Assembly: GCA_014728035.1 (NCBI GenBank)
Contig: WJMJ01000059.1
Coordinates: 160,001 to 224,000 of the forward strand
Direction of reading: 5' to 3'
Length of the DNA: 64,000 bases
DNA from: Promethearchaeota archaeon
GTDB taxonomy: Archaea; Asgardarchaeota; Thorarchaeia; Thorarchaeales; Thorarchaeaceae
The notes beneath the pieces were generated by a model. That model was not told the DNA's origin. It worked only from the letters and a program-made list of their open reading frames with translations, and did not search any database. A program made the translations under genes and the position numbers. Below, piece after piece: positions 3,246 to 33,569 of this stretch. The stretch's first letter is position 1, and each line of letters starts with the position of its first letter.

Positions 3246-4331
3246 ATGATTAGAGTGACTCTACCATGCTATCAATGTGGCGAAGAAGCTATCCTGGAAG
3301 GACTTTGTCCAACCTGCTACCGCAAAAAATACCCTCTTGTGGAAGTTCGAACCCCCATCAAAATCACTGCTTGTAAGCGATGTGGGTCAATAAAGATTCC
3401 AGGTGGCTGGAAGACAATTCCAGGAAACATTGATGATTCAGAAGAATTAATGAATACTCAAGCCTCGTATGCTATCGGTCTTGAGGTTGGACTTCTAAAC
3501 CCAGCTGTAGAGTTGACAATAGATATTGAAAATCGCCTTGATCGAGTTTTACATGTCGATTTGATTGCATATGGAATGTCGCATAAAAAACTTGAACCCC
3601 ATGAAGAACACTATCCTGTTGAATTGAGGTTTCATTATGCTACATGTGGTACTTGTGGAATGATGAGTGGAGGATATCATGAAGCTATATTGCAGATACG
3701 TGCTGATGAACGTGAAGTATCTCAAGAAGAAATAACTGAAATCTTACGTATTGTGACAGATAAAACTGTCAGCAAATATGGTCAAGATACTAAAGCATTT
3801 GTAACGGAAGTAACTGAAAATAAATTTGGGATGGATTTGCGAATCGGATCTGAGCATCTCGCTAAGAGAATTGCTGACCAGCTTGAATCTCAATACCTTG
3901 CGGAGCGAAAAGACAATTACAAACTAATTGGTCAAGAAAAGGGTGGAAAGGAAAAATACCGTATCACTATTCTTATTCGACTACCTCGATTTCAGATAGG
4001 TGACTTTGTTAAAGTGAATAACTCTCCGTGTCAAGTGATTTCTTTGGGTAAAGGGGGACTCGGATGTTTTGATTTGCAAACTAGAGAGTCCTTCACTATT
4101 AATCCTAAGAGTGCAAAATGGAGAACTCTTGAGTTTCTGGACAAAGAAACCGTAACTCGTGAATACATGGTTACAATGAGGGCGTTTGACCAACCAATTC
4201 AGATAATGGATTCGAAAACCTTCGAAATATTAGAAATAGACCCCTCTCGTTTTGACAGTCCAGCTGAAACAGGAGGTACGGTACATGGTGTATTCCTTGA
4301 AGGAACCTTCTATCTCCTACCTATGAATTGA
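3246..4331 (+). CDS. nmd3: Nmd3 large-subunit biogenesis factor
   Basis: Four CxxC pairs and GGYHEAILQIR signature; next to aIF1A/Rio1. Confidence 0.9.
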   Translation: MIRVTLPCYQCGEEAILEGLCPTCYRKKYPLVEVRTPIKITACKRCGSIKIPGGWKTIPGNIDDSEELMNTQASYAIGLEVGLLNPAVELTIDIENRLDRVLHVDLIAYGMSHKKLEPHEEHYPVELRFHYATCGTCGMMSGGYHEAILQIRADEREVSQEEITEILRIVTDKTVSKYGQDTKAFVTEVTENKFGMDLRIGSEHLAKRIADQLESQYLAERKDNYKLIGQEKGGKEKYRITILIRLPRFQIGDFVKVNNSPCQVISLGKGGLGCFDLQTRESFTINPKSAKWRTLEFLDKETVTREYMVTMRAFDQPIQIMDSKTFEILEIDPSRFDSPAETGGTVHGVFLEGTFYLLPMN

Positions 4332-4419
4332 TGGTAAATCTCTTCCGAGTTCGGTACTCTTAAATGGCTTATTATCACTTTTTAAAAAGACTAACAAGGT
4401 CCTTTATTGGAGGTATATT

Positions 4420-4734
4420 TTGTCACCCAGAAAAGATTCATCCGAAACCGAAACCTTTCGAGTACGAACACCAAGACGCCAAGATGGTGAAATATTTGGT
4501 ATAATAATTCAGATGCTTGGCCATGATAGAGTTCGTGTAAGGTGTGAAGATGAAGAAATCAGAGTAGGTAGAATTCCCGGAAGAATGAAGAAAAGAGTTT
4601 GGATGAGAGTCGGGGATACTGTACTAGTTGTACCTTGGGATTTTCAAAGCGATGAAAAATGCGATGTAGTTTGGCGTTACCGAAATAATGAGATTGATTG
4701 GTTAAAGAATCGCGGAATCCTTAAGATGTTCTAA
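4420..4734 (+). CDS. eif1a: Translation initiation factor aIF-1A
   Basis: MLG..RVRVRCED...RIPGRMKKRVW...GD.VLV.PWDFQ..K.D..WRY. Confidence 0.97.
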   Translation: MSPRKDSSETETFRVRTPRRQDGEIFGIIIQMLGHDRVRVRCEDEEIRVGRIPGRMKKRVWMRVGDTVLVVPWDFQSDEKCDVVWRYRNNEIDWLKNRGILKMF

Positions 4735-4796
4735 TCTCAATATTTTCATTATGCAATGTTTAGTTAAAGGGAACTCTTCTCTTTTTTTCTTTTTAG

Positions 4797-5597
4797 ATGG
4801 TGTATAGTATGAAAAAGGCAGACTCTGAGTATGATCGTATTATTTCAGAGCTGGATCGCCGAAAAATGAAAAGGCGAAAAGATGTTGACGAATTCAAGGT
4901 AGTTGAGGGTGTTATTGATATCCCCACACTGAAGGCTCTTTATAGATTGTTCAATCGTAGCACTCTGAATGCTCTTCATGGAGTAGTAAGTACAGGAAAG
5001 GAGGCAAATGTTTATCGTGGTGAAGATGCAGATGGAAAGGCGGTTGCTGTAAAGATTTATCGTGTCAGCACTGCAGAAACTGACTTCATGCTGGAATATA
5101 TCATGGGTGACCCGCGATTTAAGAGGGTTAAGAAAAGGAGTCGTTCTTTGATACCTATTTGGGCTCTTAAAGAATTCAAAAATCTCACTCGATTTGATGA
5201 AGCTGGAATCCGTGTTCCCAAACCAATTGATATCGAAAGAAATGTTTTAGTAATGGAGTTTATTGGTGATGATGAAAAGTTTATCCCTGCTCCCTTATTA
5301 AAAGACGTAGTGTTGGATTCTCCAATTGATGTATTTGATGAAATAATATCAATGATTGAAATTGCATATACTGATGCAGATCTTGTTCATGCCGATTTGA
5401 GTGAGTTTAATATCCTTTGGTGGAACGGTCCTGTTATCATTGATGTTTCACAGGCGGTATTGTATAAACATGACTACGCAAAAAAATACCTTCGTCGGGA
5501 CATTGATAATATCTCAAAGTATTTCGGCCGATTAGGTGTCGAATCTGCAGACTCTGAAGAGATAGCTAGATACATTATATCTTCTGGTGAAAAATAA
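4797..5597 (+). CDS. rio1: RIO1 family Ser/Thr kinase
   Basis: STGKEANVY, AVKIY, LVHADLSEFN, IIDVSQAV. Confidence 0.96.
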   Translation: MVYSMKKADSEYDRIISELDRRKMKRRKDVDEFKVVEGVIDIPTLKALYRLFNRSTLNALHGVVSTGKEANVYRGEDADGKAVAVKIYRVSTAETDFMLEYIMGDPRFKRVKKRSRSLIPIWALKEFKNLTRFDEAGIRVPKPIDIERNVLVMEFIGDDEKFIPAPLLKDVVLDSPIDVFDEIISMIEIAYTDADLVHADLSEFNILWWNGPVIIDVSQAVLYKHDYAKKYLRRDIDNISKYFGRLGVESADSEEIARYIISSGEK

Positions 5598-5599
5598 CG

Positions 5600-6166
5600 A
5601 TGTTATATCATGAAACTATTCGAATTCCGCAAGAACGTGTTGGCGTGTTAGTTGGCCGTGATGGTAGAGTAAAAAGAAGAATCGAAAAACTAACAAACAC
5701 AGATTTGGAAATTGACTCTGAAGGTACTGTAACGATTACGAATCCTGAAAAATCAGAAAATCCTGTTTTAGCATGGAAGGCACGAAATATTGTTCGTGCC
5801 ATAGCTCGTGGATTTAGTCCTAAACGTGCACTCTCATTAATAGATGATGATGCTCAACTGGTCATAGTTTCTTTGAAAGATGCAGTTGGATCATCGCCAA
5901 GTCAAATTCAACGAGTTGCTGGAAGAATAATTGGAGAACGTGGAAGAACACGACGTGTTATTGAAGAGATAACTGAAACAAAAGTATCAGTCTATGGCAA
6001 GACCGTATCGATAATTGGTGTTCCCCCAGGATTAGATTTTGCTCGAAGAGCCATCGATATGCTGATTACAGGGGCTCCACACAGTGCGGTATACACTCGT
6101 CTTGAAAGTATGCGAAGAGAAATGAATCGCATGAGAGCTGAACTATGGGAAGAGCATCCAGAATAG
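5600..6166 (+). CDS. dim2: KH-domain rRNA processing protein (Dim2/Pno1/Krr1-like)
   Basis: Two KH GxxG loops; AIARGFSP, GRIIGE.GRTR, GAPH..VY. Confidence 0.93.
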   Translation: MLYHETIRIPQERVGVLVGRDGRVKRRIEKLTNTDLEIDSEGTVTITNPEKSENPVLAWKARNIVRAIARGFSPKRALSLIDDDAQLVIVSLKDAVGSSPSQIQRVAGRIIGERGRTRRVIEEITETKVSVYGKTVSIIGVPPGLDFARRAIDMLITGAPHSAVYTRLESMRREMNRMRAELWEEHPE

Positions 6167-6214
6167 TAATACGGAATTTGATAAGCGAATAATCAATAAT
6201 TTTGATGATATAGT

Positions 6215-7726
6215 ATGAAATCCGGTTCAGAAGACAATTTCAGCAGTATTTCACCTGCTGAGTTCTTCTATCGTAATAAGCAGATGGCTGGCTTTGGAAA
6301 TCCTACTCAAGCTGTTTATTCTACGGTGCGTGAACTAGTTGAAAATGCTCTTGATGCATGTGAAGAAAAAAAAGTATTTCCTGAAATTCAAGTTATCATC
6401 AAGTCTATTGATACCAACACGCTATCAATAACCGTTTCAGATAATGGAACTGGCCTACCTCACAATCAAATACCCCGTGCGTTCGGTCGAATCTTATATG
6501 GTAGTAAATATGATGCAAGACAGCGTAGAGGGACTTTTGGACTTGGAGTTACTATGGCTGTTCTCTATGGTCAGATTACAACTGATACTCCAGTAATAAT
6601 TCACACACAACAAGAGAATTCCCCTGGAGTTTTCATAACTTTGACAATTGACATAGAAAAAAATCAACCGGTTGTTATCTCTGAAGATACCAGAAAGCGT
6701 AAACCGCCAGGAACTACTGTTACTATTCATCTTCAAGGAGATTTGACACGTTCAAGGGATAGGATTATCGAATACCTTACCCTTTCTACCATCGGCTCTC
6801 CTCACGCAAAAATAAAGCTAGAAATTGATGATTCTACATCTATGGCATGGGGTGCTTTCAGTGATGAGTATCCTGCATCAACAATATCTTGCAAACCCCA
6901 TCCTAGGTCTGCAGATTTCGAAATTTTACGTCGCCTTCTTAGAGCCAACCCAAATCTGAGCATTCACCAGTTTCTTGTTGAAAGCTTCCAACAGGTTGGA
7001 GATCGTACAGCTTCAAAGTTCCTCACGTTTATGGGGTTCGATTCTGAAATGAAGGTGACCGATTTGTCAAGAAAATTAATAGTTCGATTAAGTAATGCAT
7101 TGCAAAAATATGATGAATTTAATCGTCCTGATGCACGTTGTCTGAGTGCAATTGGTAAAGCCCCCATGATAGACTCCATTGAATCACTTTTCAGTCCCGA
7201 TTTCGTTGCATACGAATTCCAGAACCCTTCCGAGTGGAATGGACATCCCTTCATCCTTGAGGGTATTTTAGCTATCGGACCGGATTTTCGCCCAGTATCT
7301 ATACCCACTCTCTACCGTTTTGCAAATCGCGTTCCTCTCCTATATGATGCAAGTGAAGATATTCTTACAAAGGTTCTCCGGCAACTTCGATGGAGTCGCT
7401 ATGGATTAAAGTCTCCTCGCCCAGTAGCGATTTTCATAAATTTATGTTCTACTAGGGTTCCTTACAAGGCTGCTGGAAAGCAGTCAATTGCTGCTATTCC
7501 ACAGCTTGAATCGGCAGCGGACCTATTGTTTAAAGCACTTGGACGAAAACTAAACTCTGCAGTAAGAATGTCTGAACGATCTAGTCGTTACAAGCAACAG
7601 ATTAGAAAATTCACGAAATATTTCAAGCATATCGTCCAATTCAGTGCCGAGCTAGCTGACAGTAGCTCAATTCCCCCTGTTGATTCAATGATTCAAGATT
7701 TGTTTGAGGTGGATGTAGATGAATAA
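6215..7726 (+). CDS. top6B: DNA topoisomerase VI subunit B
   Basis: SPAEFF, ELVENALDA, DNGTG, RGTFGLG GHKL motifs; RFANRVPLLYD transducer. Confidence 0.96.
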   Translation: MKSGSEDNFSSISPAEFFYRNKQMAGFGNPTQAVYSTVRELVENALDACEEKKVFPEIQVIIKSIDTNTLSITVSDNGTGLPHNQIPRAFGRILYGSKYDARQRRGTFGLGVTMAVLYGQITTDTPVIIHTQQENSPGVFITLTIDIEKNQPVVISEDTRKRKPPGTTVTIHLQGDLTRSRDRIIEYLTLSTIGSPHAKIKLEIDDSTSMAWGAFSDEYPASTISCKPHPRSADFEILRRLLRANPNLSIHQFLVESFQQVGDRTASKFLTFMGFDSEMKVTDLSRKLIVRLSNALQKYDEFNRPDARCLSAIGKAPMIDSIESLFSPDFVAYEFQNPSEWNGHPFILEGILAIGPDFRPVSIPTLYRFANRVPLLYDASEDILTKVLRQLRWSRYGLKSPRPVAIFINLCSTRVPYKAAGKQSIAAIPQLESAADLLFKALGRKLNSAVRMSERSSRYKQQIRKFTKYFKHIVQFSAELADSSSIPPVDSMIQDLFEVDVDE

Positions 7727-8780
7727 GAAAAAAGAGGATTCCCCTCTTGATGTGCTGAAAGACTTCGGTTCTAGACTTATGGTTGAAATCCAACGGGGTG
7801 TTTTCCCATCTATTTCCTTTCCAGATCGTGGTACTGATAATATTAGATTTGATTCGGATCTTGGGCGATTTACTCTTGGAAATGCCACTATTACCCGCGA
7901 CTCTAGTAATTTAAAACACATCAGAAGTTTTGCTCAACTTGTTTGGGTTGCCTCTTTTGTAAAGCAACTCCTTGAATCTGGTAGAACAAGCTCACTTAGG
8001 GACTTGTATTATTCTGCAGAAGCCTACGATGTAGAGTTTAAGAATCAAGCGGAATCGGACCGTATTATTACTGACTTAGAATGTGTGACAGGACTTGCAC
8101 GTGAAGACTTCGCTATCTATTCGGAAGAGCATTCCTCTATCTTTGGTCAACTTGTGATGAGATATACCGTGCCTGGATATGAGGACAAAACAGTAAATCT
8201 CACAATGAGTCCCGATGGTCTTCCTATTGGACCTGCACTTATGACTGCAGAACCTGTATCATCAGATGCAAGATGTATTCTTGCTGTTGAGTCGGGAGGT
8301 ATTTTTTCAAGATTGATTGAAACTCGTGCATGGGATCGCTTTGGCTGTATACTTGTTCATCTAGGTGGACAACCTCCACGCTCAACACGTCGGCTTATGC
8401 GAAAATTATGTGTACATTTGGACTTACCACTTTTTATCTTCACAGATGGTGACCCATGGGGTATGCATATTGCTCAAGTAATTATCAGTGGAAGTGCAAA
8501 TGCTGCTCACATCTCTGAACTGACAGTTCCTTCAGCAAAGTGGATTGGTATCACTCCCGAGGATATAACTCATTATAGTTTACCCTCTGAAGATATGAAA
8601 AACGTAGACCTAAAACGACTTGATGAGCTAACTCGTGATATTCGTTACGCTGATGAAACTTGGCAGAAACATATCCATCGTTTCAGGGAACTCAGAAAGA
8701 AAGCTGAACAGCAATCTTTCAGTAAATATGGTGTTGACTTTGTAGTGGATACATACCTGCCTGATAAACTGAATATTTGA
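7719..8780 (+). CDS. top6A: DNA topoisomerase VI subunit A (Spo11-like)
   Basis: LRDLYY catalytic Tyr; TOPRIM AVE...G.P...TR, FTDGDPWG; KAEQQ. Confidence 0.96.
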   Translation: MNKKKEDSPLDVLKDFGSRLMVEIQRGVFPSISFPDRGTDNIRFDSDLGRFTLGNATITRDSSNLKHIRSFAQLVWVASFVKQLLESGRTSSLRDLYYSAEAYDVEFKNQAESDRIITDLECVTGLAREDFAIYSEEHSSIFGQLVMRYTVPGYEDKTVNLTMSPDGLPIGPALMTAEPVSSDARCILAVESGGIFSRLIETRAWDRFGCILVHLGGQPPRSTRRLMRKLCVHLDLPLFIFTDGDPWGMHIAQVIISGSANAAHISELTVPSAKWIGITPEDITHYSLPSEDMKNVDLKRLDELTRDIRYADETWQKHIHRFRELRKKAEQQSFSKYGVDFVVDTYLPDKLNI

Positions 8781-8786
8781 CCTCTC

Positions 8787-9815
8787 TCAAAGATACGTAA
8801 GAAGAAGAAATACTACGGTTCCATATGCAAGTACTGCTTGAATAAGCATAAGCAGCCGAACGTTCTTCTTTTCTGTTATCTTATTTGATAAGTGTGGAAA
8901 CAACCAATACATTGTGAATGGTCCAGTTACTTCAAGTGTGCCATCATTTCTCACATTTGCAAATTTTGCATATTCAATTCCTGTCTTTTTAACATATAAT
9001 CTATAAAACAGATACATTACAAAATTTAGTAGAAATGGCATGTAGAGCATTATAGCGAGTCTATCCATGTTTCCTATTATCAGTGCCGCTGCTAGCGTTG
9101 CACCAATAGGCAAACGACCAACATCACCCGGAAGTATTTTCGCGGGAAACCGATTGAAAACAAAAAAAGCGCTAACAGCTCCAAAGAGAGCAGCTGCAAC
9201 TATTCCCGAGTCCATTAGTATACTTGTTGACTCATCAGTAAGCACTTGTGTCATTATACTATAAATGATGACTGCAGAAGAGTTGATAGCAGCTAATCCC
9301 GATTCGAGTCCATTCATTCCTCCATACATATTTGTTGAATCAATGATGAAAGTCATCATTAATGGCACAACTGCTAAAGGATATAGTATACCCAAATCTA
9401 TTGTACCGATTAACGGTATATTCATAGTTCTCGTACCAACTTGTAGTGCTATCATTGGGATTGAAGCCACGAGTGGAAGAACTACTTTTGTTCTATTTCG
9501 AAAATCTAAGTTATCATCGAGTATTCCAATCATGCTTGCCATTAAAATTGAAACAAGTGCTGCAAGCAGAGCTGGATTGACAGTTTCAGATTGCTCCAGA
9601 AACGAGGTCATCCCGATCACAATAAGGAGTCCCGTAACAATTGCAAAAAGAATCACAAATCCTCCACCCTTTGGGACTTTTGGACGGTCAATTTTATGAA
9701 CGTCTTCTCCGTAAATTCCTTTTTCTTCCAGCATCTGAATTGTTCCGGGTGTGAATATGATTACAATCAGAAAAGATGTGATTGCAGCTACAAGAATCGA
9801 TAACACGGTTGACAC
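8787..9815 (-). CDS. aglH: UDP-GlcNAc:dolichyl-phosphate GlcNAc-1-P transferase (AglH/Alg7/DPAGT1, MraY/GT4 family)
   Basis: Multi-TM; G.DVHK..P.VP..GG, GILDD, N..GGMNGLE, FNRFPAK..PGD motifs. Confidence 0.85.
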   Translation of the reverse strand: MSTVLSILVAAITSFLIVIIFTPGTIQMLEEKGIYGEDVHKIDRPKVPKGGGFVILFAIVTGLLIVIGMTSFLEQSETVNPALLAALVSILMASMIGILDDNLDFRNRTKVVLPLVASIPMIALQVGTRTMNIPLIGTIDLGILYPLAVVPLMMTFIIDSTNMYGGMNGLESGLAAINSSAVIIYSIMTQVLTDESTSILMDSGIVAAALFGAVSAFFVFNRFPAKILPGDVGRLPIGATLAAALIIGNMDRLAIMLYMPFLLNFVMYLFYRLYVKKTGIEYAKFANVRNDGTLEVTGPFTMYWLFPHLSNKITEKKNVRLLMLIQAVLAYGTVVFLLLTYL

Positions 9816-10042
9816 TCCTTAATATTTTGGTTTACTAACCTTTTTTCAATCTTTGGTAGTCGTGAAAGTTGTACAAATTCCTCATTAGATATGAAAAGAA
9901 TCATTCAGACTATACCAAAATTTTGTTACAATCACTATTCTAACGCAAACTATTTTAACTAACTATCAGCTCGACGCCATTGCACATGGTCGGTTGAATG
10001 AGACCATAGACTATCGACCAAACAGATAACCGGTGATTCATA

Positions 10043-13003
10043 TTGAGCCTGTTGCATAGAAGACTATTCACAATCGTGCTGCTAACACTTTTCGTTTCAA
10101 GTAGTGTTATGACCATGGTTCCTCTTTCGAGTACCCAAAAGATGAATACCGTGACTCACAACACGGGACAGCAAGAAGTTGCGACTATCACTCCGCAAAA
10201 TCTGTCTATCCCCTATGTTGACGAGCATTACGGTCATGCTGATGGAATAATCGATCCAATGGAATATTCATTTCAATATACTGACCCAGTTACAGGAATC
10301 TCCGTTTATCTTGAACATGATTCTGATAATCTATATGTTGGTCTTCTTGCGCCAACAGAAAATTGGGTTGCATTTGGCTGGAAGAACTACAATGAATCCT
10401 TTGAATCTGGTGGGCTTAACGGGAGTGACTTGATTTACGGATATGCTCCTGGCAACCCTCATACTTCGATTCCACGAGTAGTACCCACTGATATAGTGAC
10501 TGTTCACTACGAACTACGTGTCCGAAATGGCACACTTCTTCAAGAAGGGGATGTTCCAGGTATTGATTCTGATACCCCTCTTCAAAACGAGTCCCTCTTA
10601 CAAGGATACAAAGATATGATTGTAGGAATGCGAATTGGTGAGGTTCGCCACTTTATTCTTCCTGCAGAAGAAGCATACAATCGTCCTGGACATCCACTTT
10701 ATGGTAATGATTTGGAATATGTTATTACTCTCTCCCGGATTGGTAGCAATGTAGATAATCCTGCTGATGCTGGAGATATCTATTATCGTGATGCATACGG
10801 TACAGGTACATTCCAATATGCATTCGACTCTAATCAATCTAGGATACTTGAAGCTGGTGGGTCTGATAATGCATCATATACACAATTGGAATACTTCATT
10901 AAAATGAACAGTACTGATTCAAATGATATTCCACTTCTGAATGGGACGGATTTCTCGTATCCATTTGTATTGATGTCCGGACCATCCGAGGATTTGTCCG
11001 ACCTGCCTGATATTCACAGTGATTGGTCAAGCGGAATAAGAATGCAATTTGTTTCTAACACAGCTCCAATGATTGATCCACAAGAGATATCCAACGATGA
11101 TGTGTTAGGGTTTGTGAAGACTATCAAGCTAAATGTGACTGATAATAGCTATGTGCGTCAAGCTTTCTTCAGAGTTGATGATGAAAACTGGACTTCAATG
11201 ACATATAATTTCAAATCTGATTTCTTTGAATATGAAGTAGACCTTTCAACATATGATCTTGGGGAACATACTATGAGTTTCAAAGCTGTTGACCCCTCAA
11301 ACACCAGCAGTTATCTCAGCTATAATGTCACGTTTGATTGGCCTTTCATTCCTTTGTTGGGAATGAAATTGTCTGTTGTACGTACACTGGTCGCTGATGC
11401 ACACCAGCTTATGCGAACTGAAGATGTATTTACTATTCTAAATAATGGATCCGCCCCCATAAATGCAATTGAAATTCTCTTACCCAAAAAGTGGGAATCC
11501 AAGTTACTATCAGTAATGGCTATTGATGGTTCAGGCAGAGAATTGGTTGTTACAAGGCTTGATGATGTTAACAACATGTTCCATTGGCGAGTAGCATTCT
11601 TTGAACCAATAGGGTTTGAAGAAAGCAAATCGTTCACATTCAAGACATATTTGCATTCAATTCATGAGCTTGTAAACTTCGATGAGCGAATCTATGATTT
11701 GCGCTATCTTGGCATTCCTGTCGTACCTTACATTCTAACAGAGGCAAAATTCGACATCCAATTACACGATAGTGATGAACTACAAGATGCCAGTCCTAAG
11801 TTTACAATGCGTGCAGTTGAGCCAATGTATATCAGAGAGGTTGAATTCTCCTTCTATTCTATTATACCCCTTCTCAAAGCTGATCGCAAAACAACTGTTT
11901 CTGTAGGTGCTTGGGGCTGGATGCATTACGCAGAGGAGATTACCATTGTCAACATCGGCTCATCCAAAGAAAACTCGTTGAATTTCCAAGTTCCTGCCTA
12001 TGCTGATGGAATAAAGATATACGACCAAGTAGGAATTCTTAGAGCATCTCAGTGGTCATTCTCTGAAACTTATGAGTTTAACAGGTCAACATCTATTAAC
12101 ATCAATCTAAACTCTGACCGATTTGGTTCTAATGGATTGATGCCTGGATACAGATATACCTTTTATCTCGATTATGCGGTCCAGACAATGAATTATGAAG
12201 ACATTATTCCCACTGGATCACAATTAGAAATCCCAATGGGAACCCTTGGAAATGTACTTGTTCATAAACATGTTGTTGATGTGAAATTGCCCATTGGCAT
12301 CAATATTCTGCAAGCTACTGATGGTTATCGTTTGTTATTTGGTGTATTTGATTTCACCTTAAGATACTCCACATACAATACAACCCGTTACAATCCAGCT
12401 ACAATTTGGGTACTGCAGCAATCTGGTGTCAGTATTCTGGCTCGTCCAATCCTCTTCGCATTAATTTTTGGAATGGTTGCTGCAATATATGTTGCAGGTA
12501 GACGGTATCAGCTAGCTAATAGAGACCTATCTGACCTAGATGAGGAAGAAGCATCCACTGTTGGATATACCGGTCCACCAACCAGTCTGATTCGTGATTA
12601 TGCAAATCTATTTTCACGAAAAACAGCACTAGATATGGATCTTGAAAAACTTGAATCATCTCGGCGTCGTGGAAAAGTCACGAAGAAGGAATATCTTCTA
12701 AGAGAGAAGGATATCAAAAGCCAATTGCGAGACATTGCTTCCGAATTGCCTGAGCTTCGAGACAAACTGGTTTCCTACGGTGGACGCTATCGCGAGATGG
12801 TTTCTACGTTAGAACTGGAGGAAGAAAAGATTCAGGGCGCAAAAGCTGGGCTTAGACAGCTTCTCATTCGCCGTAAGAAACAGAGAGTAAGTCGAGTCGC
12901 TTTTGAAAGATCGCGTCAAGATTATCTGAAGACTATTTCAAAGTCTACTACCACAATTGACCGGATACTCTTGAATCTCCAAGAAGAAGCTGGGGAGGAC
13001 TAA
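10043..13003 (+). CDS. Secreted, membrane-anchored DOMON(+FKBP insert)-Ig-ribophorin I-like fusion protein
   Basis: Signal peptide; DOMON motifs (LYVGL.A...WVAFGW, GSDLIYGY, DAYG.G, TQLEY...STD.ND); FKBP segment; two ribophorin-I-like beta domains (DRKTTVSVGAWGW...EEITIVN); single TM; cytosolic coiled coil. Confidence 0.72.
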   Translation: MSLLHRRLFTIVLLTLFVSSSVMTMVPLSSTQKMNTVTHNTGQQEVATITPQNLSIPYVDEHYGHADGIIDPMEYSFQYTDPVTGISVYLEHDSDNLYVGLLAPTENWVAFGWKNYNESFESGGLNGSDLIYGYAPGNPHTSIPRVVPTDIVTVHYELRVRNGTLLQEGDVPGIDSDTPLQNESLLQGYKDMIVGMRIGEVRHFILPAEEAYNRPGHPLYGNDLEYVITLSRIGSNVDNPADAGDIYYRDAYGTGTFQYAFDSNQSRILEAGGSDNASYTQLEYFIKMNSTDSNDIPLLNGTDFSYPFVLMSGPSEDLSDLPDIHSDWSSGIRMQFVSNTAPMIDPQEISNDDVLGFVKTIKLNVTDNSYVRQAFFRVDDENWTSMTYNFKSDFFEYEVDLSTYDLGEHTMSFKAVDPSNTSSYLSYNVTFDWPFIPLLGMKLSVVRTLVADAHQLMRTEDVFTILNNGSAPINAIEILLPKKWESKLLSVMAIDGSGRELVVTRLDDVNNMFHWRVAFFEPIGFEESKSFTFKTYLHSIHELVNFDERIYDLRYLGIPVVPYILTEAKFDIQLHDSDELQDASPKFTMRAVEPMYIREVEFSFYSIIPLLKADRKTTVSVGAWGWMHYAEEITIVNIGSSKENSLNFQVPAYADGIKIYDQVGILRASQWSFSETYEFNRSTSININLNSDRFGSNGLMPGYRYTFYLDYAVQTMNYEDIIPTGSQLEIPMGTLGNVLVHKHVVDVKLPIGINILQATDGYRLLFGVFDFTLRYSTYNTTRYNPATIWVLQQSGVSILARPILFALIFGMVAAIYVAGRRYQLANRDLSDLDEEEASTVGYTGPPTSLIRDYANLFSRKTALDMDLEKLESSRRRGKVTKKEYLLREKDIKSQLRDIASELPELRDKLVSYGGRYREMVSTLELEEEKIQGAKAGLRQLLIRRKKQRVSRVAFERSRQDYLKTISKSTTTIDRILLNLQEEAGED

Positions 13004-13080
13004 AACCTCCTCAATTTCCTCCTTAGGAATCCTTATCAAATCTTAAGTCATGATGTCTGTCCCCTTTGGGGGGCATTATC

Positions 13081-13950
13081 ATGACTACAATCCCTTCTTT
13101 GAAGCGTAACCAAATCAGTGCGCGCGAAATGTTAGAGCCTGATACTAAAGCTCTTGAGCTGTATCAATACCTTACTGCTTCTCCTAAAGTACAATCCTAT
13201 TTGCGAACTGCAAATAGAATGGCTGTTTCACGATTGGGTTATACTGACCATGGACCAGTACATGCCCAAGTTGCAACTTGGAATGCATTGAAGGTATTTG
13301 AAATCTTGGAGAAGACATTCAAACCAAATATTGTTGCTGAGGGGATTGGAGATATAGATGATGCCAAACTGATCATCCTCGCATCTACCTATCTGCATGA
13401 TATAGGCATGGTAATTCACAGAACTGAACATAATCAAGCCGCTGTTTACCTTGCATCACAAATTCTTGAGCCTAAACTTGTAGAAATTTATGATGATCCA
13501 GGTATGGCCACTGATATTTTGTCATTTATTCTCCATGGTATCTATTCTCATGATGATGATACTCAATGCCTTACTTTTGAAGCTGGAATAACCAAACTTG
13601 GTGATGGAGCTGATTTAACAAAAGGGCGTACCATCGTACCATATCAAAAAGGAAAAGTGGATATCCATTCGGTAAGTGCACTAGCAATCAATAATGTTTT
13701 GTTCGATCATGGTAAAAATCATCCGTTACAGATTACTGTTGCAATGGACAATCCTGCAGGTGTTTTCCAAGTACAAGCTGTACTAGAGAAAAAAATTTCC
13801 ACATCTGGTTTAGGCGATCATATTTCTATTGATGTGCTTGTTAATGGGGATCGATTAATTCTTTCACAGGTTAAGAGACTCTTTCGTGTTCAATTAGAAG
13901 ATTCTGTTGAATCAATTGGCATGAAAAGAGGAAACAAGACTGAAGAATAG
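13081..13950 (+). CDS. HD-domain phosphohydrolase
   Basis: RLGYTDHGPVHA, YLHDIG..IHR..H, DGADLTKGR, IHSVSA. Confidence 0.88.
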   Translation: MTTIPSLKRNQISAREMLEPDTKALELYQYLTASPKVQSYLRTANRMAVSRLGYTDHGPVHAQVATWNALKVFEILEKTFKPNIVAEGIGDIDDAKLIILASTYLHDIGMVIHRTEHNQAAVYLASQILEPKLVEIYDDPGMATDILSFILHGIYSHDDDTQCLTFEAGITKLGDGADLTKGRTIVPYQKGKVDIHSVSALAINNVLFDHGKNHPLQITVAMDNPAGVFQVQAVLEKKISTSGLGDHISIDVLVNGDRLILSQVKRLFRVQLEDSVESIGMKRGNKTEE

Positions 13951-13970
13951 AACGAATCCATTGTGAATGA

Positions 13971-14078
13971 TGGTAGCCCCGCCAGGACTCGAACCTGGGT
14001 CGTCGGGAGCTTTCATCGGGCAGTACGGAACTAGCCGATACCAAAACCCGATATGATGGACCGCTACACCACGGGGCT
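13971..14078 (-). tRNA. tRNA-Gln(TTG) with 32-nt canonical 37/38 intron (14009-14040); CCA encoded
   Basis: Cloverleaf AGCCCCG/CGGGGCT; anticodon stem TCGGG/CCCGA; BHB TTTT-GGT / GAAA-GCT with intron stem ATCGG/CCGAT. Confidence 0.93.
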
Positions 14079-14394
14079 ATTCTTCTTGGATTCCGAAAGG
14101 CTTTCCACCCTTAAGAATTTCTGTTGGAATTCTTCCTTTCCATTTCTCAAGGAATTTAGTCTCTTCAATGCGTTGCTTTCCTTCCAGCCTTTGTTCATCA
14201 GGAAGCATACAGACAATCCCATCTATTACAGGATACCATCTGCCGCATTTTGGACAGGTTACCAATGCCTCATCAATTTCTGTGACTGAGTCATTGTCTA
14301 TTTTAATCTCGTGCTGTGTATATATTTCAAGATTAAGTTTACTTCGACAATCTTCAGCAGGACATGCTAATATATCCATCAGCCACATTTTCAA
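14077..14394 (-). CDS. trm112: Trm112-like methyltransferase activator (Zn ribbon)
   Basis: K.WLMDILACP...L.L...EIDEA...CPKCGRWYPVIDGI..ML; TTG start at 14394 with GGTGA SD. Confidence 0.88.
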   Translation of the reverse strand: MKMWLMDILACPAEDCRSKLNLEIYTQHEIKIDNDSVTEIDEALVTCPKCGRWYPVIDGIVCMLPDEQRLEGKQRIEETKFLEKWKGRIPTEILKGGKPFGIQEE

Positions 14395-14534
14395 CTTGGT
14401 CACCTGTGATTCGTATAGCGTCACGTAGGGATTTAAAAACTATTCTGGCGGTTACGAACTCAGTAACAAAATCAAAGGAGTTAGCTAAGAACTCTTCAAT
14501 CTTATCAACTCAAAATGATTTGGTGGTTTTCGAT

Positions 14535-15935
14535 ATGGAATGGACGCATCCTTGGTTACCTATCACATATGAAACACAGAATCAAATGCTAGAGGCAATC
14601 TCAAAGGAAAAGTTAGACGATTTGTTCTGTAATATTCCTGATAAATTCAGACTAAAGCGCGACTTGAAATTACCCACTTCCCATTCTGAATATGAAGTAG
14701 CAAAACGATTGCAGGAACTTGCATCAAAAAACCATCCTGCTGATAATGGTCGAGTGTTCATAGGTTCTGGTGTTTATCCTCATTATATCCCTCACGTTGT
14801 TCCAGCTCTTGCAGGCCGCTCTGAATTCGTCACGTCCTATACGAGTTACCAACCTGAAATTAGCCAAGGCATGCTTCAAACTCTGTTCGAGTATCAAAGC
14901 ATGTTAGCGGAGATACTCCAAATAGAAGTAGTGAATTCTTCAATGTATGATATGGCCACGGCACTTGGTGAAGCGGCAAGAATGACTGCACGAGTGAATA
15001 AAAAACGTGATCGATTCTTGATTCCCAGTAGTATGAATCCAGAGTTCTGCAAGGTTCTTCAAACATATACTGAACCAGCAGATATTGAGGTTGAACAGAT
15101 TGACTACGACAAAAATACTGGTCTTATGGATCTCTCTGATTTGGAATCACGTCTAAATGAAGACGTTGCTGGAGTATACTTAGAAAACCCAAGCTATCTT
15201 GGCTTTATTGAAACTCAAGTTGATGCTATCAGCAAAATGGCTCATGATGCAGGTGCTCTATTGGTAGCTGGAGTCGATATTCTCTCACTGGGTCTCTTAC
15301 GACCTCCTGGTGAGTATGGTGCCGATATAGTAATTGCCGAAGGTCAACCCCTCGGTTCTCCCATGTCTTATGGTGGGCCCCTTCTTGGTATATTTGGATG
15401 TAAAATGGAAAGAAAACTGGTATACCAAATGCCTGGCCGATTGGTTGGACTGACTAGAACTGAAGAGGAACCCTATGAACGTGGATATGTGCTAACTCTT
15501 AGTCCCCGAGAGCAACATATTCGTCGTGAGAAAGCAACAAGCAATATTTGTTCCAATCAAGCTTTGGCAGCGGTAACTGCTGCAGTTTATTTATCCACTA
15601 TTGGCCCAACTGGCTTATATGAACTAAGTAAAAGTATAGCATACAAGTCTAATTATGTTGCTAAGAAATTGAATGAAATTTCTGGTGTAGTTTCACCTGC
15701 CATTGGTGATTCAATATGGCGGGAATTTGTTGTACAATTCAATGATGGAGTATCTGCTGAAGACGTGCATGATGCCCTACTCGCTAATAATTTACATGGT
15801 GGTAAGATTCTATCTACCGTATTTCCAGAACTAGGTGAGTCTATGCTCCTTTGTGTAACAGAATTGCACGATTTACAGACGATTGAAGAATTAATAGAAA
15901 CAATATCTGGTATATTTCAAAATGGAGGTGCTTAG
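14535..15935 (+). CDS. gcvPA: Glycine decarboxylase P protein subunit 1
   Basis: F.GSGVY.HYIP, EFVTSYTSYQPEISQG.LQ.LFEYQ, REQHIRREKATSNICSNQ. Confidence 0.96.
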   Translation: MEWTHPWLPITYETQNQMLEAISKEKLDDLFCNIPDKFRLKRDLKLPTSHSEYEVAKRLQELASKNHPADNGRVFIGSGVYPHYIPHVVPALAGRSEFVTSYTSYQPEISQGMLQTLFEYQSMLAEILQIEVVNSSMYDMATALGEAARMTARVNKKRDRFLIPSSMNPEFCKVLQTYTEPADIEVEQIDYDKNTGLMDLSDLESRLNEDVAGVYLENPSYLGFIETQVDAISKMAHDAGALLVAGVDILSLGLLRPPGEYGADIVIAEGQPLGSPMSYGGPLLGIFGCKMERKLVYQMPGRLVGLTRTEEEPYERGYVLTLSPREQHIRREKATSNICSNQALAAVTAAVYLSTIGPTGLYELSKSIAYKSNYVAKKLNEISGVVSPAIGDSIWREFVVQFNDGVSAEDVHDALLANNLHGGKILSTVFPELGESMLLCVTELHDLQTIEELIETISGIFQNGGA

Positions 15936-15937
15936 AA

Positions 15938-17494
15938 TTGAAGAACGAATATCTACTGGACAGAAAGGTTCGTCAAGCAAGATGGGATGAACCACTATTA
16001 TTTGAACGTTCAAATCCTGGCGTGTTAGCTCATCAAGTTCCGAAACTTGAACAAGAGATTCAGGATGCCTTTGGATCCTTGGACTCGATTATTCCAAAAT
16101 CAATGAAACGAGAGTCAGCTCCCAATCTTCCCGAGGTTTCTGAGTTACAGGTTGTCCGTCATTTCACTCGTTTATCACAAATGAATTTCTCAGTTAGTCT
16201 TGGCACTTATCCTTTGGGAAGTTGTACAATGAAATACAACCCTTTAATCAATGAATCCGCAGCATCCCTATCTGGATTCGCTTGGTTACATCCACATCAA
16301 GATTTACGTCAATGTCAAGGTGCTTTAGAATTAATGTGGGAGCTGGAGCAATGGCTAGCTGAAATTACTGGTATGGATGCAGTAACGCTCCAACCAGCAG
16401 CCGGTGCACAAGGTGAGTTTACTGGTGTTATGATAATGCGAGAATACCATCGTTGCATTACTAAAGAGTGTGAACAAAGACATGAGATGCTTATTCCAGA
16501 CGCTGCTCATGGAACAAACCCAGCTTCTGCTGCAATGGCTGGATATAACGTAGTAGTTGTTCCTTCAAGTGATGAAGGACTTGTTGATTTAGACGCACTC
16601 AAGGAATCTGCAGGCCCTAACACAGCTGGGCTCATGCTTACAAATCCCAACACTATCGGTGTATTTGAGAAAGACATTGCTGAGATTGCAGGAATCGTAC
16701 ACGATGCTGGAGGTTTACTATATTATGATGGAGCTAATTTCAATGCAATAATGGGTGTTGTCAGGCCTGGTGATATGGGCTTTGATGTCGTACATCTCAA
16801 TCTTCACAAGACAATGTCGACACCTCATGGCGGGGGTGGGCCTGGGTCTGGACCTGTAGGAGTAAACGAAGAACTTGCCGAGTTTCTCCCAGTCCCTCGT
16901 ATCATTAAAGAGGAGGATGGAACCTTTGGTCTTGACTATGACCTTCCTCGCTCCATTGGAAAAGTTAAGGGATTCTTTGGTAATTTTGGAATGCTGGTCC
17001 GTGCGTATTCCTACATCTATTCACTAGGTTATCAGGGTCTCCATCGTGCATCTGAGGTAGCTGTACTTAATGCAAATTATGTGGCCTATCATATCCGTAA
17101 GATTCGTGGATTCTCTCTCCCTTATTCTCAAGATGATCCTCGAATGCACGAGTGTGTCATTTCAGCGGAAAAGTTGAAAGATGATACTGGAATTACTGCA
17201 ATGGATGTTGCCAAACGTCTACTAGATTTTGGAATCCATTCCCCCACCGTGTATTTTCCACTCATCGTTCCTGAAGCTTTGATGATAGAGCCCACAGAAA
17301 CTGAATCAAAACAGGATTTAGATAGGTTAATTTCAGCTTTCCAAACCATATCTGACGAGGCATATTCTACCCCTGATATTGTGAAAAATGCACCCACATC
17401 AACTGCTCTTCGTAAGCTTGATGAATATCGTGCAGCTCACCCAAAAACTCTTACATTATCTTGGAAGATGCATTTGGAGAAAAATGAGGAGTAA
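15938..17494 (+). CDS. gcvPB: Glycine decarboxylase P protein subunit 2
   Basis: YPLGSCTMKYNP, QPAAGAQGE, HGTNPASA, HLNLHKT (PLP Lys), PHGGGGPG, IEPTETES. Confidence 0.97.
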   Translation: MKNEYLLDRKVRQARWDEPLLFERSNPGVLAHQVPKLEQEIQDAFGSLDSIIPKSMKRESAPNLPEVSELQVVRHFTRLSQMNFSVSLGTYPLGSCTMKYNPLINESAASLSGFAWLHPHQDLRQCQGALELMWELEQWLAEITGMDAVTLQPAAGAQGEFTGVMIMREYHRCITKECEQRHEMLIPDAAHGTNPASAAMAGYNVVVVPSSDEGLVDLDALKESAGPNTAGLMLTNPNTIGVFEKDIAEIAGIVHDAGGLLYYDGANFNAIMGVVRPGDMGFDVVHLNLHKTMSTPHGGGGPGSGPVGVNEELAEFLPVPRIIKEEDGTFGLDYDLPRSIGKVKGFFGNFGMLVRAYSYIYSLGYQGLHRASEVAVLNANYVAYHIRKIRGFSLPYSQDDPRMHECVISAEKLKDDTGITAMDVAKRLLDFGIHSPTVYFPLIVPEALMIEPTETESKQDLDRLISAFQTISDEAYSTPDIVKNAPTSTALRKLDEYRAAHPKTLTLSWKMHLEKNEE

Positions 17495-25966: not shown

Positions 25967-26983
25967 TTAGCCGAATAGGCTACCCATTCCGGCTGTTGCT
26001 TCTTCTTCTTCCTCTTCTTCCTCCTCCTCTGGTTCATCTGTTGGCTCATCAGAGACGGCCGGTGTGGGTGCTGCGGCTGCAGCACTTTGAACCTGGCTGA
26101 GGACTTCAGCGGGGATTGCATCTGGGTCTTTTTCAGCAAGAGCACTTGCCAGAGCAAATGCTTGTGAATTTGCCTTTGATAAGAACTCACCAAGCATATC
26201 GGGTTCGAAGAAACCAACCTCTAGGGCTAGTACTTTTGCGTCCGAATTGGCTTTTGCGAGTATCAGTGGAATTGTGTCTGTGGTTGGATAACCACTATTT
26301 ACTGACAGATTTACAGCATACTGGTGTCCCAGTAAGACTTGTTCAAATAGACTTTCTAGGTCGATTTCAAAGTCTTCTGCAGTTAGAACTGCACCATCTG
26401 TATAGGCTGCCACGAGCTTCAGCTGAAGCTCCATTGGTTCTATTCCAAGTCTTCCAAGCATCTGAGCCATTGCGTTAGACACCACTTCACCTGCTTCTAC
26501 TGCAACAGTATCTTCAGTGATGTGAATAACACCACCTTTAACCCGGGAGGGTATATCAAGACCTGCAAGTTCTGTAATGAACGGTCCTGGTGCAACACCA
26601 GTGTTCATTGCAGGGACAATGATGTCTTTTGGGGTTGTTTGCCCTCCTTTTGCAGGAGCAGCTGCTTTATTCTCAGCAAGAAACTTACTTAGAATGAAAG
26701 GATCTTGGTCACTGAACACAAAGGCTACTGGGCCTTTTACAAAGTCAGATAATCCTTTGATACCCTTGGCTTTTGCATCCTCGATTGCTCTTCGCATGAG
26801 GGTGTTACGAGCCATTTTGATTTTTGCAGAGCCTCTGAGGCTTTCTCTGATACCCTGCAACTGTTTTGCCCCAACACCTTCAACATTGACAAGACCAACC
26901 ATTTTGCTCTCTTGGATTGCAGACGTGAGTTCTTTGACAGCATCCCGCTTCCATTGAGGTATTACACGTTCTTCTAATGCCAT
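25967..26983 (-). CDS. rpl10: Ribosomal protein uL10 (P0)
   Basis: IPQWK, KMARNTL, TG..PGP, acidic tail with GMGSLFG. Confidence 0.97.
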   Translation of the reverse strand: MALEERVIPQWKRDAVKELTSAIQESKMVGLVNVEGVGAKQLQGIRESLRGSAKIKMARNTLMRRAIEDAKAKGIKGLSDFVKGPVAFVFSDQDPFILSKFLAENKAAAPAKGGQTTPKDIIVPAMNTGVAPGPFITELAGLDIPSRVKGGVIHITEDTVAVEAGEVVSNAMAQMLGRLGIEPMELQLKLVAAYTDGAVLTAEDFEIDLESLFEQVLLGHQYAVNLSVNSGYPTTDTIPLILAKANSDAKVLALEVGFFEPDMLGEFLSKANSQAFALASALAEKDPDAIPAEVLSQVQSAAAAAPTPAVSDEPTDEPEEEEEEEEEEATAGMGSLFG

Positions 26984-26996
26984 TCATGTACACCTC

Positions 26997-27650
26997 TCAT
27001 TGTATTTCGATTGCAGGACCCATGGTGGTCTTAACATATACCGAATCAACACGTTCGGACAGTCCCTTGTTCTCAACAAAATTGAGAACGGCCTGTATGT
27101 TTTCTGCAATCTCTTCATCACTCATCTTAACATGGCCTACCTTAACATGAAATGTGGGAGTATTTCTCATTACTATTCGAACAGTTTTGTGGTACTGTTC
27201 AACCACACCTGTCAATTCGGCCTGGGGTGGGAATGGTTTGGGCATTTTTCCTCGGGAACCCAAGACCTGTCCAAGATATCTGCCAACAAGTGGCATTGCA
27301 TCTGTAACAGCTATGAAGAAATCATAGCTTTTAGCTAGGCTCTTACGTGTCTTCTTGTCTTCACCTATCTTGGATATCTCATCTTTTGATACCACTCTTG
27401 ATACTCCAGCTGCTTCTGCATTAGTGGCAAACTCACCGTCTCCAAACGCGCATATTTGAGCTGGAGGATATAATGCTTGAGGCAATACAAGTTCATCTTT
27501 GAATCGGTTCTCATTTTTTGAGAGGTCCATTTCTTTTCGTCTGAAATTGACTGCAATGTCGATACTCTGGTCGAAATTGATTCCTCTTTCAAGACCTTTC
27601 TCCCGTGCTTGTGCTACGGCAGTTTTTATCTCGTCAGTACTATATGACAT
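26997..27650 (-). CDS. rpl1: Ribosomal protein uL1
   Basis: F.QS.DI..N, LG.RGKMP.P, Y.KTTMGP. Confidence 0.96.
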   Translation of the reverse strand: MSYSTDEIKTAVAQAREKGLERGINFDQSIDIAVNFRRKEMDLSKNENRFKDELVLPQALYPPAQICAFGDGEFATNAEAAGVSRVVSKDEISKIGEDKKTRKSLAKSYDFFIAVTDAMPLVGRYLGQVLGSRGKMPKPFPPQAELTGVVEQYHKTVRIVMRNTPTFHVKVGHVKMSDEEIAENIQAVLNFVENKGLSERVDSVYVKTTMGPAIEIQ

Positions 27651-27654
27651 GTAT

Positions 27655-28167
27655 TCATGCCTCCCTAAGTGGCTCGTCTAGTTGTTCATCCCATTTACCA
27701 TCTCGGACCTCTTGTTGAAACTCTTTTGCCATTTTGCCTTCAATTGTAACACCCATTGAAACACAGGTGCCTGAAACAATCATAACAGCAGTTTTCATAG
27801 TCAGAGCTGATATATCCGAAGCTTTTCCCTTTGCTACATTTTTCAGTTGGTCAATGGTAAGGTCTCCAATTATTACCTCGTTTGGTTCGCCTGATCCACC
27901 TGATTGCCCGATCTCTTTCAAAATCAGTGCACTGGTTGGTGGTGTTCCGACATCTACCTCAAAGCTTTTAGTGGCTGGGTCTACAGTGATTGTTACTGGT
28001 ACTTTCAACCCCACAAAGGGTTGAGTTACCTCATTTATCTTTGTAACCACTTGGAAAATGTTAACACCTGTAGGACCTAAAGCCGGACCAATTGGTGGTC
28101 CTCCGGAGGCTTTGCCTCCTTCTACCATTGCCTCTACTACTATTGGTTTTTCACTCACAATAATCAC
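27655..28167 (-). CDS. rpl11: Ribosomal protein uL11
   Basis: GGKA..GPPIGPALGP.G, VG.PPTS.LI, GTC.SMG. Confidence 0.97.
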   Translation of the reverse strand: MIIVSEKPIVVEAMVEGGKASGGPPIGPALGPTGVNIFQVVTKINEVTQPFVGLKVPVTITVDPATKSFEVDVGTPPTSALILKEIGQSGGSGEPNEVIIGDLTIDQLKNVAKGKASDISALTMKTAVMIVSGTCVSMGVTIEGKMAKEFQQEVRDGKWDEQLDEPLREA

Positions 28168-28458
28168 GACTCCTGCTGCAGTATCTTAGGTGATTTTGAA
28201 GCTCACCATATAGGTCGACCTTCCATGTAAAACAAGTGTTGAATTCATTCAGGTCTACTGCATACATTGTCACTTTTCTTCACCCCGGACATGATTTCTA
28301 ATTCATGTCGAATTAAGGAGTTAATGAAAGCGAGAGAACTCTCGTTTTAAGAGTTACGGACTGTCCATCATTCTGCGTATATTCTATTTTAAAAAATAAG
28401 AAAAAGAAGGAGTTTTTTACTCCTGTCTTTTAGTTGAAGTTTATAGTATATTTATTAT

Positions 28459-29130
28459 CTAGTCTCGTGCCCAGAATGAATCATCATCGAGAGAGTCATC
28501 TTCTACTTTGTCATCATCACTCTCTTCTGTATCTTCATCCTTTGGTTCCGATTTTGCTTTTTCAACAAGTTTTGCAAAATCTGCATGAACACGAACTGGA
28601 ATTGTATACGGGCTATCTAATAGCTCTAGGATTAGCTCCTCTTTAGCACTATCTACACGAGATACTTTGGCACGTTCTCCATTGAATGGTCCTGAAATGA
28701 TTTCCACAACATCATCAATGGAAATGCCTTCTGCAGCTGGCTTTGGAACAAGAAACTTATCGATTTCTTCAAGCGTTACCTTTCCGCCAACTCTTCCTCG
28801 TACATGAGGAACTCCAGATATTGCAATCTCTACATCTCTAAACTCTTGTGTTTCGATGAATACATACCCTCTGAGAGTTTCGGGGACTAAGATAGCTTTC
28901 ACTCTTCCCAGAAGCTGATTCTGAGAAACTAAATTTGGTTCTCCATCTTTTCCCTTTTTACATTTCTTCATGTGGGTTTTAGTATCTTTTTTAGTGGAGA
29001 ATTGTTCTTTACAGAAGGGGCACTCCCATACATCGGTTTCACCAATAACTGCTGTTGTGATGAGATCAGTTACTCCTTTCTCTTGACCGATTGTTGTTCG
29101 TACAGCGTAGATACTTGTTCTCGGTGGCAA
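28459..29130 (-). CDS. spt5: Transcription elongation factor Spt5/NusG with inserted zinc finger
   Basis: YAVRTT.GQE, LRGYVF.E (NGN); VEIISGPF.GE.A (KOW); CPFC-x12-H-x3-C insert. Confidence 0.95.
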   Translation of the reverse strand: MPPRTSIYAVRTTIGQEKGVTDLITTAVIGETDVWECPFCKEQFSTKKDTKTHMKKCKKGKDGEPNLVSQNQLLGRVKAILVPETLRGYVFIETQEFRDVEIAISGVPHVRGRVGGKVTLEEIDKFLVPKPAAEGISIDDVVEIISGPFNGERAKVSRVDSAKEELILELLDSPYTIPVRVHADFAKLVEKAKSEPKDEDTEESDDDKVEDDSLDDDSFWARD

Positions 29131-29181
29131 TTCTTTGCCTCCTATTTTATTATATAGTTGTTAGACTCACTTCGAGTCCTA

Positions 29182-29370: not shown

Positions 29371-29459
29371 TATGGTTTCACATCCTAGGTACTACCGACT
29401 CAGTAGTGCCGGAATCATCTTCCATCTTTTCTAGTATGCTTTTAATACTTGCTGAGTGT

Positions 29460-30608: not shown

Positions 30609-30697
30609 TCACACCTAAACGTCTGATTTGTTGATGTATTATGCTAACAAAAAGTAGTGTAGTCTTCTGGTTAGTATGTGGGTAATACATGGTCAAA

Positions 30698-31648: not shown

Positions 31649-31660
31649 ACTATGCGCCTC

Positions 31661-33562: not shown

Positions 33563-33569
33563 TCAATCA

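Follow-up and report, generated by a model that had tools for sequence, protein, structure and literature searches.

An archaeal OST1/ribophorin I protein with an FKBP domain nested in a DOMON-like head, found across one class of Asgard archaea

Ribophorin I, or OST1, is a non-catalytic helper subunit of the machinery for protein N-glycosylation, which these archaea have in common with eukaryotes, and counts as a eukaryotic signature protein of Asgard archaea; eukaryotic ribophorin I is taken here to be plain, and we know of no eukaryotic RPN1 with an FKBP or a DOMON domain. A crystal structure is available for the cytosolic four-helix bundle of OST1 from ‘Ca. Prometheoarchaeum syntrophicum’ MK-D1 (PDB 8WHN), and this bundle binds ribosomes (PMC11417166). 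Human FKBP11, which combines a transmembrane (TM) anchor, a lumenal FKBP domain and a tail that binds ribosomes, associates with the ribosome-Sec61-OST-A translocon (PDB 9N9J/9YGY), where its pocket holds CCDC134; the authors of that work doubt an isomerase role for the protein (PMC12804085). Here we analysed a 64,000-nucleotide (nt) stretch of DNA from a Promethearchaeota archaeon of the class Thorarchaeia (GenBank assembly GCA_014728035.1, contig WJMJ01000059.1, positions 160,001 to 224,000 of the forward strand), hereafter the window, which belongs to a genome of 4.33 Mb with 97.9% completeness and 8.5% contamination. A gene in the window encodes an OST1 of 986 amino acids (aa) whose N-terminus carries an additional extracellular head, made up of an FKBP domain nested in a DOMON-like β-sandwich and followed by an Ig-like domain. 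The identity of this protein as an OST1 with such a head, and its architecture, are very nearly certain. The gene and the parts of its product are located in the window as follows.

10043..13003, + strand, OST1/ribophorin I gene with the DOMON-FKBP-Ig head (986 aa, TTG start)
10043..10123, + strand, predicted signal peptide or N-terminal hydrophobic segment, residues 1-27 (basic HRR followed by a hydrophobic run, by eye; model helix 4-18)
+ strand, linker between the N-terminal hydrophobic segment and residue 50 (low confidence; predicted local distance difference test score, pLDDT, <50 for residues 1-50)
10193..10462, + strand, N-terminal half of the DOMON-like β-sandwich, residues 51-140 (structural and phmmer matches)
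10478..10741, + strand, FKBP domain nested in the DOMON, short type without the IF insert, residues 146-233 (Pfam, structure, Foldseek)
10760..11062, + strand, C-terminal half of the DOMON-like β-sandwich, residues 240-340 (BLASTP and structural matches)
11066..11338, + strand, Ig-like domain, residues 342-432 (Big_7 in orthologues; all-β in the model)
11360..12424, + strand, ribophorin-I/OST1 extracellular (lumenal-equivalent) β-sandwich domains, residues 440-794 (Foldseek, phmmer, Pfam of orthologues)
12428..12508, + strand, single TM helix, residues 796-822 (continuous model helix 796-828)
12578..13000, + strand, cytosolic four-helix bundle, residues 846-986 (8whn_A profile match; four long model helices within 847-983)

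The full-length AlphaFold2 model of this OST1, generated from a 94-sequence alignment, had a mean pLDDT of 88.5, with residues 1-50 and 826-842 as the only poor regions; the signal peptide and the TM helix were read from the sequence together with this model. The protein is a type-I membrane protein with a membrane-proximal ribophorin-I fold, one TM helix and a cytosolic four-helix bundle, and its head is a rigid extracellular unit of ~390 aa in which a short-type FKBP is placed between two DOMON strands and an Ig spacer follows. All 16 N-X-S/T sequons lie N-terminal to the TM helix, a placement that would fit an N-out glycoprotein, and several are kept in 54-61 of 61 orthologues. The stop-to-stop frame has 988 codons, two more than the gene call, and orthologues align from residue 1. 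A preliminary description of this DNA, written without database searches, had proposed a signal peptide, a DOMON domain split by an FKBP segment, an Ig-like domain, a ribophorin-I-like C-terminal half, one TM segment and a long cytosolic helical region, with an Alg7/AglH-type gene across a divergent intergenic region, and each of these elements was recovered in the present analysis.

Profile searches with the families named in that description distributed their matches unevenly. When the 986-aa query was scanned on its own against Pfam (E<=1) and NCBIfam, FKBP_C was the only match and Ribophorin_I, DOMON and Ig were not found; the assignments of these three come from matches in orthologues and from structure. 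Approximately 200 orthologues of 930-1000 aa were retrieved, mostly named ‘Thorarchaeota’ where named, and a Pfam scan of 22 of them returned FKBP_C in 22/22, Ribophorin_I in 13/22, Big_7 in 12/22 and DOMON in a single protein (1/22). The Big_7 matches fall at ~342-413, the position equivalent to the Ig domain of the query.

The evidence for the ribophorin-I half comes from sequence and from fold. Ribophorin_I (PF04597) was matched by the 13 orthologues at E<=0.01 (best 1e-9) over residues ~454-769, jointly covering profile positions 14-367, and four of five orthologues scored individually exceeded the 25-bit cut-off. In phmmer searches, residues 443-985 of the query matched many proteins of 560-620 aa with E-values down to 7e-35, and three out of four of these shorter relatives that were scanned are Pfam Ribophorin_I proteins (E 1e-11 to 1e-17); specifically, the query matched P0140, P0141 and P0142, all three assigned to Ribophorin_I by Pfam, with E-values of 7e-35 to 2e-33. 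A Foldseek search of the PDB with the model gave oligosaccharyltransferase (OST) or translocon chains as its top eight matches – 8b6l (8b6l_O), 6s7o (6s7o_E), 8pn9, 6ezn (6ezn_A), 8agb, 7oci, 6s7t and 6c26 – at E-values of 1e-26 to 4e-16, a probability of 1.00 and TMt values of 0.50-0.66; the entry titles name only the complex, and we take these chains to be RPN1/Ost1. When the family profile was compared with PDB sequences, the best match was 8whn_A (E 2e-8, positions 833-977), and at E<=1 the search reached 8WHN and FKBPs alone and not RPN1/Ost1. By this match, the predicted cytosolic bundle and the domain with which Asgard and human OST1 bind ribosomes are homologues. This is the only ribophorin-I-like gene found in the genome in a protein-query search; a search of the genome with the PF04597 hidden Markov model returned no match, the OST1 gene itself included, and control genomes likewise gave none, which makes that search uninformative.

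The head was modelled separately (residues 51-340) with a pLDDT of 93.5 and a predicted template modelling score (pTM) of 0.89. In a search of this model against representative structures (VIA Z-scores), members of the DOMON superfamily ranked first, with EbdC (2ivf_C) at Z 15.7, NxrC at Z 14.8 and the DOMON domain of dopamine beta-hydroxylase (DBH) at Z 14.0; further matches included the CDH cytochrome domain (Z 12.6) and CBM9 (Z 12.3). The DOMON alignments cover 141-179 residues; they start at model residue 1-24, cross the insert and end at 288-290. At the sequence level, phmmer and BLASTP link the head to the Pfam-DOMON proteins P0213 and P0221 (E 1e-11 to 1e-13), and both halves align by BLASTP with P0221, an uninterrupted DOMON protein that has ~20 aa between them compared with ~135 aa here. 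The query itself had no match to Pfam DOMON (PF03351), and the one orthologue that did scored E 3e-5. Since the DOMON matches span both sides of the FKBP insert, the nesting of FKBP in DOMON is correct by sequence and by fold.

The insert itself matches Pfam FKBP_C at residues 146-230 (nt 10478-10732) with an E-value of 5e-8 and 33.6 bits against a cut-off of 21.1, covering profile positions 5-93 of 94, in agreement with the segment 10478-10742 given in the preliminary description. It folds as an FKBP in the model: FKBPs match head-model residues ~91-187, with SlyD at Z 12.6 and a root-mean-square deviation (rmsd) of 1.9 Å over 85 residues, FKBP2 compared with the insert gives Z 11.9 and an rmsd of 2.0 Å over 92/100 residues, and the best Foldseek matches of the insert are FKBP13/FKBP2 (TMt 0.72-0.76). 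About half of the FKBP structural alignments begin at model residue 7-14 and not at ~91. These early starts give a hint that the place of FKBP strand β1 is taken by a stretch close to the DOMON N-terminus (residues 8-14 of the model, ~58-64 of the protein).

Across 61 full-length orthologues, mean identity was highest in the cytosolic bundle (64%), followed by 61% in both the N-terminal half of the DOMON and the FKBP, and 38-44% in the ribophorin domains. FKBP pocket positions were mapped in FKBP12 numbering using our own motif alignment, aided by the 7dek alignment. Y26 and Y82 are present in 62/62 sequences, W59 is replaced by Y in 60/62, F99 by Y in 59/62 and I56 by L in 61/62, while H87 is found in 51/62 and F36 is replaced by I or L. 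The domain departs from FKBP12 at D37 (Q/E), F46 (S) and R42 (P). As read from these residues, the ligand-binding pocket of the FKBP appears to be maintained, but it is uncertain whether the domain can catalyse. Residues conserved at >=95% in the DOMON halves include many Asp, Glu, Asn, Trp and Tyr positions, a pattern that would be compatible with a CBM9-like Ca2+ or sugar site.

Of 87 species-representative genomes in the class (Thorarchaeia-type), 84 have the full architecture. They include all high-quality genomes (24/24) and span all genera (17/17) as well as both families, of which the second has it at 34% identity; the partial matches within the class sit at contig ends. None of the ~310 other genomes of the phylum had the full architecture, and when the head by itself was searched against 400 genomes of the phylum, the complete head was confined to the class, with only single-domain fragments elsewhere. 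OST1 itself was detected in 326 of these 400 genomes, and plain OST1 occurs in all other Asgard families sampled. Among the best-scoring matches, complete OST1 open reading frames (ORFs) measure 576-634 aa outside the class and 981-1034 aa inside it. As the head is class-wide and absent elsewhere in the phylum, it was therefore gained once, by parsimony, in the ancestor of the class.

The genome also contains a head-only paralogue (C125:6129-7889; L004 1330-3090) of 586 aa that is 42% identical to the head. Its order is signal peptide, DOMON/FKBP, Ig, ~120 more residues that we take to be another, putative Ig-type domain, a Ser/Thr-rich linker and a C-terminal TM anchor. A head-only gene was found in just one other genome of the class, and the head-only paralogues retain the FKBP pocket residues. 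A quick maximum likelihood tree (IQ-TREE), with the distant family as root, placed the head-only proteins inside the fusion clade on long branches (SH-aLRT 82-92). Because of this nesting they look like secondary partial duplications and not like the donor of the head, the long branches making the placement tentative. Downstream of the paralogue lie two small ORFs in tandem (126 and 162 aa), paralogues of each other whose N-terminal halves are almost identical.

Upstream, the OST1 gene shares its intergenic region with a divergent gene.

8787..9815, - strand, Alg7/AglH-type GT4 gene, UDP-GlcNAc:dolichyl-phosphate GlcNAc-1-P transferase (342 aa)
9816..10042, no strand, AT-rich intergenic region of 227 bp common to both divergent genes (direct reading)

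The product of the divergent gene matches Glycos_transf_4 (PF00953) in Pfam with an E-value of 1e-26. Among PDB sequences the nearest is human DPAGT1/Alg7 (E 5e-19), with MraY at only 6e-9, and scores with the NCBIfam MraY and WecA models were far under their cut-offs; the neighbour is thus assigned to the Alg7/AglH type because the DPAGT1 match is well ahead of that to MraY. All sampled genomes of the class (12/12) retain the divergent pair, which lies within a ten-gene block, NMD3-RIO1-KH-Top6B-Top6A-<GT4|OST1>-HD-GcvP1-GcvP2 (window 3246-17494; the KH gene is Pno1-like and RIO1 is a kinase), that is collinear in the same 12/12, the distant second family included. Taken by itself, the collinearity of this block could reflect mere genome collinearity. 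However, nine other Asgard families were sampled with 20 loci, and in 13/20 a GT4 homologue likewise lies no more than 7 kb from plain OST1, which supports a linkage of OST1 with Alg7 that is real and ancient. In five of these 20 loci (L023, L024, L034, L037 and L042), GcvP1/GcvP2 (glycine-cleavage P-protein) adjoin plain OST1, so that the OST1-GcvP adjacency predates the class.

The STT3/AglB gene (968-aa ORF; C25:57236-58477) is on the same contig as OST1, ~110 kb upstream of it and ~105 kb ahead of the window. About 4 kb upstream of STT3/AglB, a 141-aa ORF (C25:53030-53341) matches the TM part of OST3_OST6 with an E-value of 4e-7, above the cut-off. Elsewhere in the window, GC content is 0.495 at 50-52 kb (50001-52000) against ~0.40 in the remainder, and AT skew and GC skew are both strongly negative over 26001-38000.

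Taken as a whole, the protein is best explained as a class-specific OST1, that is, a ribosome-docking non-catalytic partner of STT3/AglB whose head handles nascent chains, and we regard this explanation as probable, though well short of secure. The cytosolic bundle would dock the translating ribosome, as the MK-D1 and human domains do, and the ribophorin core would sit beside AglB at the Sec translocon. The head would then hold the peptide-binding pocket of the FKBP at the outer membrane face, where nascent secreted and membrane proteins emerge and get glycosylated. There the FKBP may bind unfolded segments that contain proline, acting as a holdase and perhaps also isomerising their prolyl bonds, and the DOMON, which is rich in invariant acidic and aromatic residues and is without conserved Met/Lys heme ligands, could provide a rigid platform or a Ca2+/glycan-binding site. 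Considered separately, the role of the head as a foldase or holdase for nascent chains has a chance slightly below even. A coupling of folding or ligand binding to N-glycosylation is plausible and would agree with how strongly the head and its FKBP pocket are conserved. A more ambitious version, in which the head actively serves as foldase and lectin during translocation, the FKBP isomerising or holding nascent chains and the DOMON reading glycans at a ribosome-Sec-AglB-OST1 supercomplex, is rather unlikely; if true, it would be the first case in a prokaryote of a folding aid hard-wired to N-glycosylation, and would correspond, in covalent form, to the arrangements that eukaryotes have with FKBP11 and with malectin and ribophorin I.

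Several points weigh against an OST1 that handles nascent chains. The OST1 role is drawn from sequence, models and analogy, for the query and for all its orthologues, and the archaeal AglB-OST1 complex is itself an assumption. Isomerase activity may be weak or absent, because the classical FKBP12 positions D37 and F46 (and also R42) are changed. In human FKBP11 the pocket is buried by the partner protein, and the authors argue against a role as nascent-chain isomerase (PMC12804085). Finally, the genome also encodes a paralogue of the head that stands alone, and therefore the head can work away from OST1.

The same substitutions (D37 to Q/E, F46 to S, R42 to P) would also fit an FKBP that served as a non-catalytic adaptor or scaffold, with the head recruiting an extracellular factor, such as an S-layer component or a translocon accessory, to OST1. 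The precedent of human FKBP11, whose pocket serves protein-protein contact and not catalysis and for which recruitment of CCDC134 has been proposed (PMC12804085), points in this direction, as does the rigidity of the DOMON-FKBP unit (pTM 0.89). The near invariance of the aromatic pocket (Y26, Y59, Y82 and Y99) could be raised in objection, yet it fits ligand binding and catalysis alike and is non-discriminating; no candidate partner was identified, and we consider a pure adaptor role improbable. Less probable again is a head that serves as a surface module for binding ligands or glycans or for adhesion, with OST1 as a mere membrane anchor and a function that has nothing to do with glycosylation or translocation. 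Surface proteins often contain DOMON and Ig domains, and the head-only paralogue has its own C-terminal TM anchor both here and in the one other class genome. However, the class has the fusion universally, as a single copy and in conserved synteny, with no plain OST1 left beside it, and the head-only paralogues nest within the fusion clade and so look secondary, as far as the weak support of the quick tree allows.

A DOMON acting as a b-type cytochrome, with the head carrying out extracellular redox chemistry that is tied, for example, to oxidative folding, might be suggested by the top structural matches, which are heme-b DOMON proteins (Z 12.6-15.7). Almost equally good matches, however, are the DBH DOMON (Z 14.0), which is heme-free, and CBM9 (Z 12.3), which binds sugar. 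Known DOMON cytochromes use Met/His or Met/Lys as axial pairs, and in the DOMON halves of the 61 orthologues no Met, Lys or Cys reaches >=95% conservation and H92 is the only His that does. With no conserved Met or Lys and one His only, a heme ligated by Met/His or Met/Lys is disfavoured, and the cytochrome explanation is the least credible of all, with very little probability left to it.

The preliminary description had also seen in this protein a possible quality-control module of a proto-endoplasmic reticulum (ER). As a statement of ancestry this was not supported, the head being confined to one class and plain OST1 being present in other Asgard families; the reading of a proto-ER ancestor was rejected, and by its distribution the head is a derived, lineage-specific accretion. 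Because the gain is lineage-specific, the head is analogous, not ancestral, to the eukaryotic translocon-associated FKBP11 or malectin-ribophorin I. The same description had not known of such a fusion, and no account of it was found in a full-text literature search with subscription-only papers outside its reach. What is novel is the combination and the nesting; the protein belongs to the OST1/ribophorin I family, and its FKBP and DOMON folds are both established ones. In public records the orthologues are named ‘FKBP-type peptidyl-prolyl isomerase’, ‘Ig-like domain-containing’ or ‘hypothetical’, and because these names omit OST1, its identity is easily missed in surveys of eukaryotic signature proteins. 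A whole class has replaced plain OST1 by a form with a strongly conserved FKBP-in-DOMON head, a likely chaperone built into the exit site of secreted proteins. The head points to an archaeal OST1 that would handle emerging polypeptides, beyond scaffolding AglB, and as a soluble unit it offers a simple experimental handle.

Compared with described systems, the protein shares with MK-D1 OST1 (607 aa; PDB 8WHN; PMC11417166) the signal peptide, the ribophorin-I domains, the single TM helix and the cytosolic four-helix bundle. With plain Asgard OST1 in general it shares sequence (phmmer E-values from 1e-35 to 1e-20 against homologues of 560-620 aa) and, in many lineages, a nearby GT4 gene, and it differs by ~390 extra N-terminal residues comprising the DOMON with its nested FKBP and then the Ig domain. 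Eukaryotic RPN1/Ost1 (human 8B6L and 6S7O; yeast 6EZN) has the same lumenal fold, type-I topology and an RPN1-like cytosolic helical domain, although identity is only 12-15% and the query itself falls under the Pfam Ribophorin_I threshold. The DOMON part has the β-sandwich of its superfamily (EbdC 2IVF_C, NxrC 7B04_C, DBH 4ZEL, CDH 1D7C and CBM9 1I82; Z 12.3-15.7), and its N-terminal DG-x-x-D-x-x-E-Y motif presumably resembles that of CBM9/EB_dh-type members; it differs from the superfamily in being broken by a whole FKBP domain and in having no conserved Met/Lys heme ligand. The FKBP insert is structurally close to human FKBP11 (Z 11.0; Foldseek E 4.5e-5), and in both cases a lumenal, or topologically extracellular, FKBP would be held at a glycosylating translocon via a TM segment and a ribosome-contacting cytosolic element. 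FKBP11, however, is a separate protein recruited by substrate, whereas in the present protein the FKBP belongs covalently to OST1 and interrupts a DOMON. The resemblance is an analogy, with FKBP11 as the non-covalent counterpart, and the attachment of an FKBP to the glycosylating translocon would have arisen in this class of archaea independently of the human FKBP11 arrangement.

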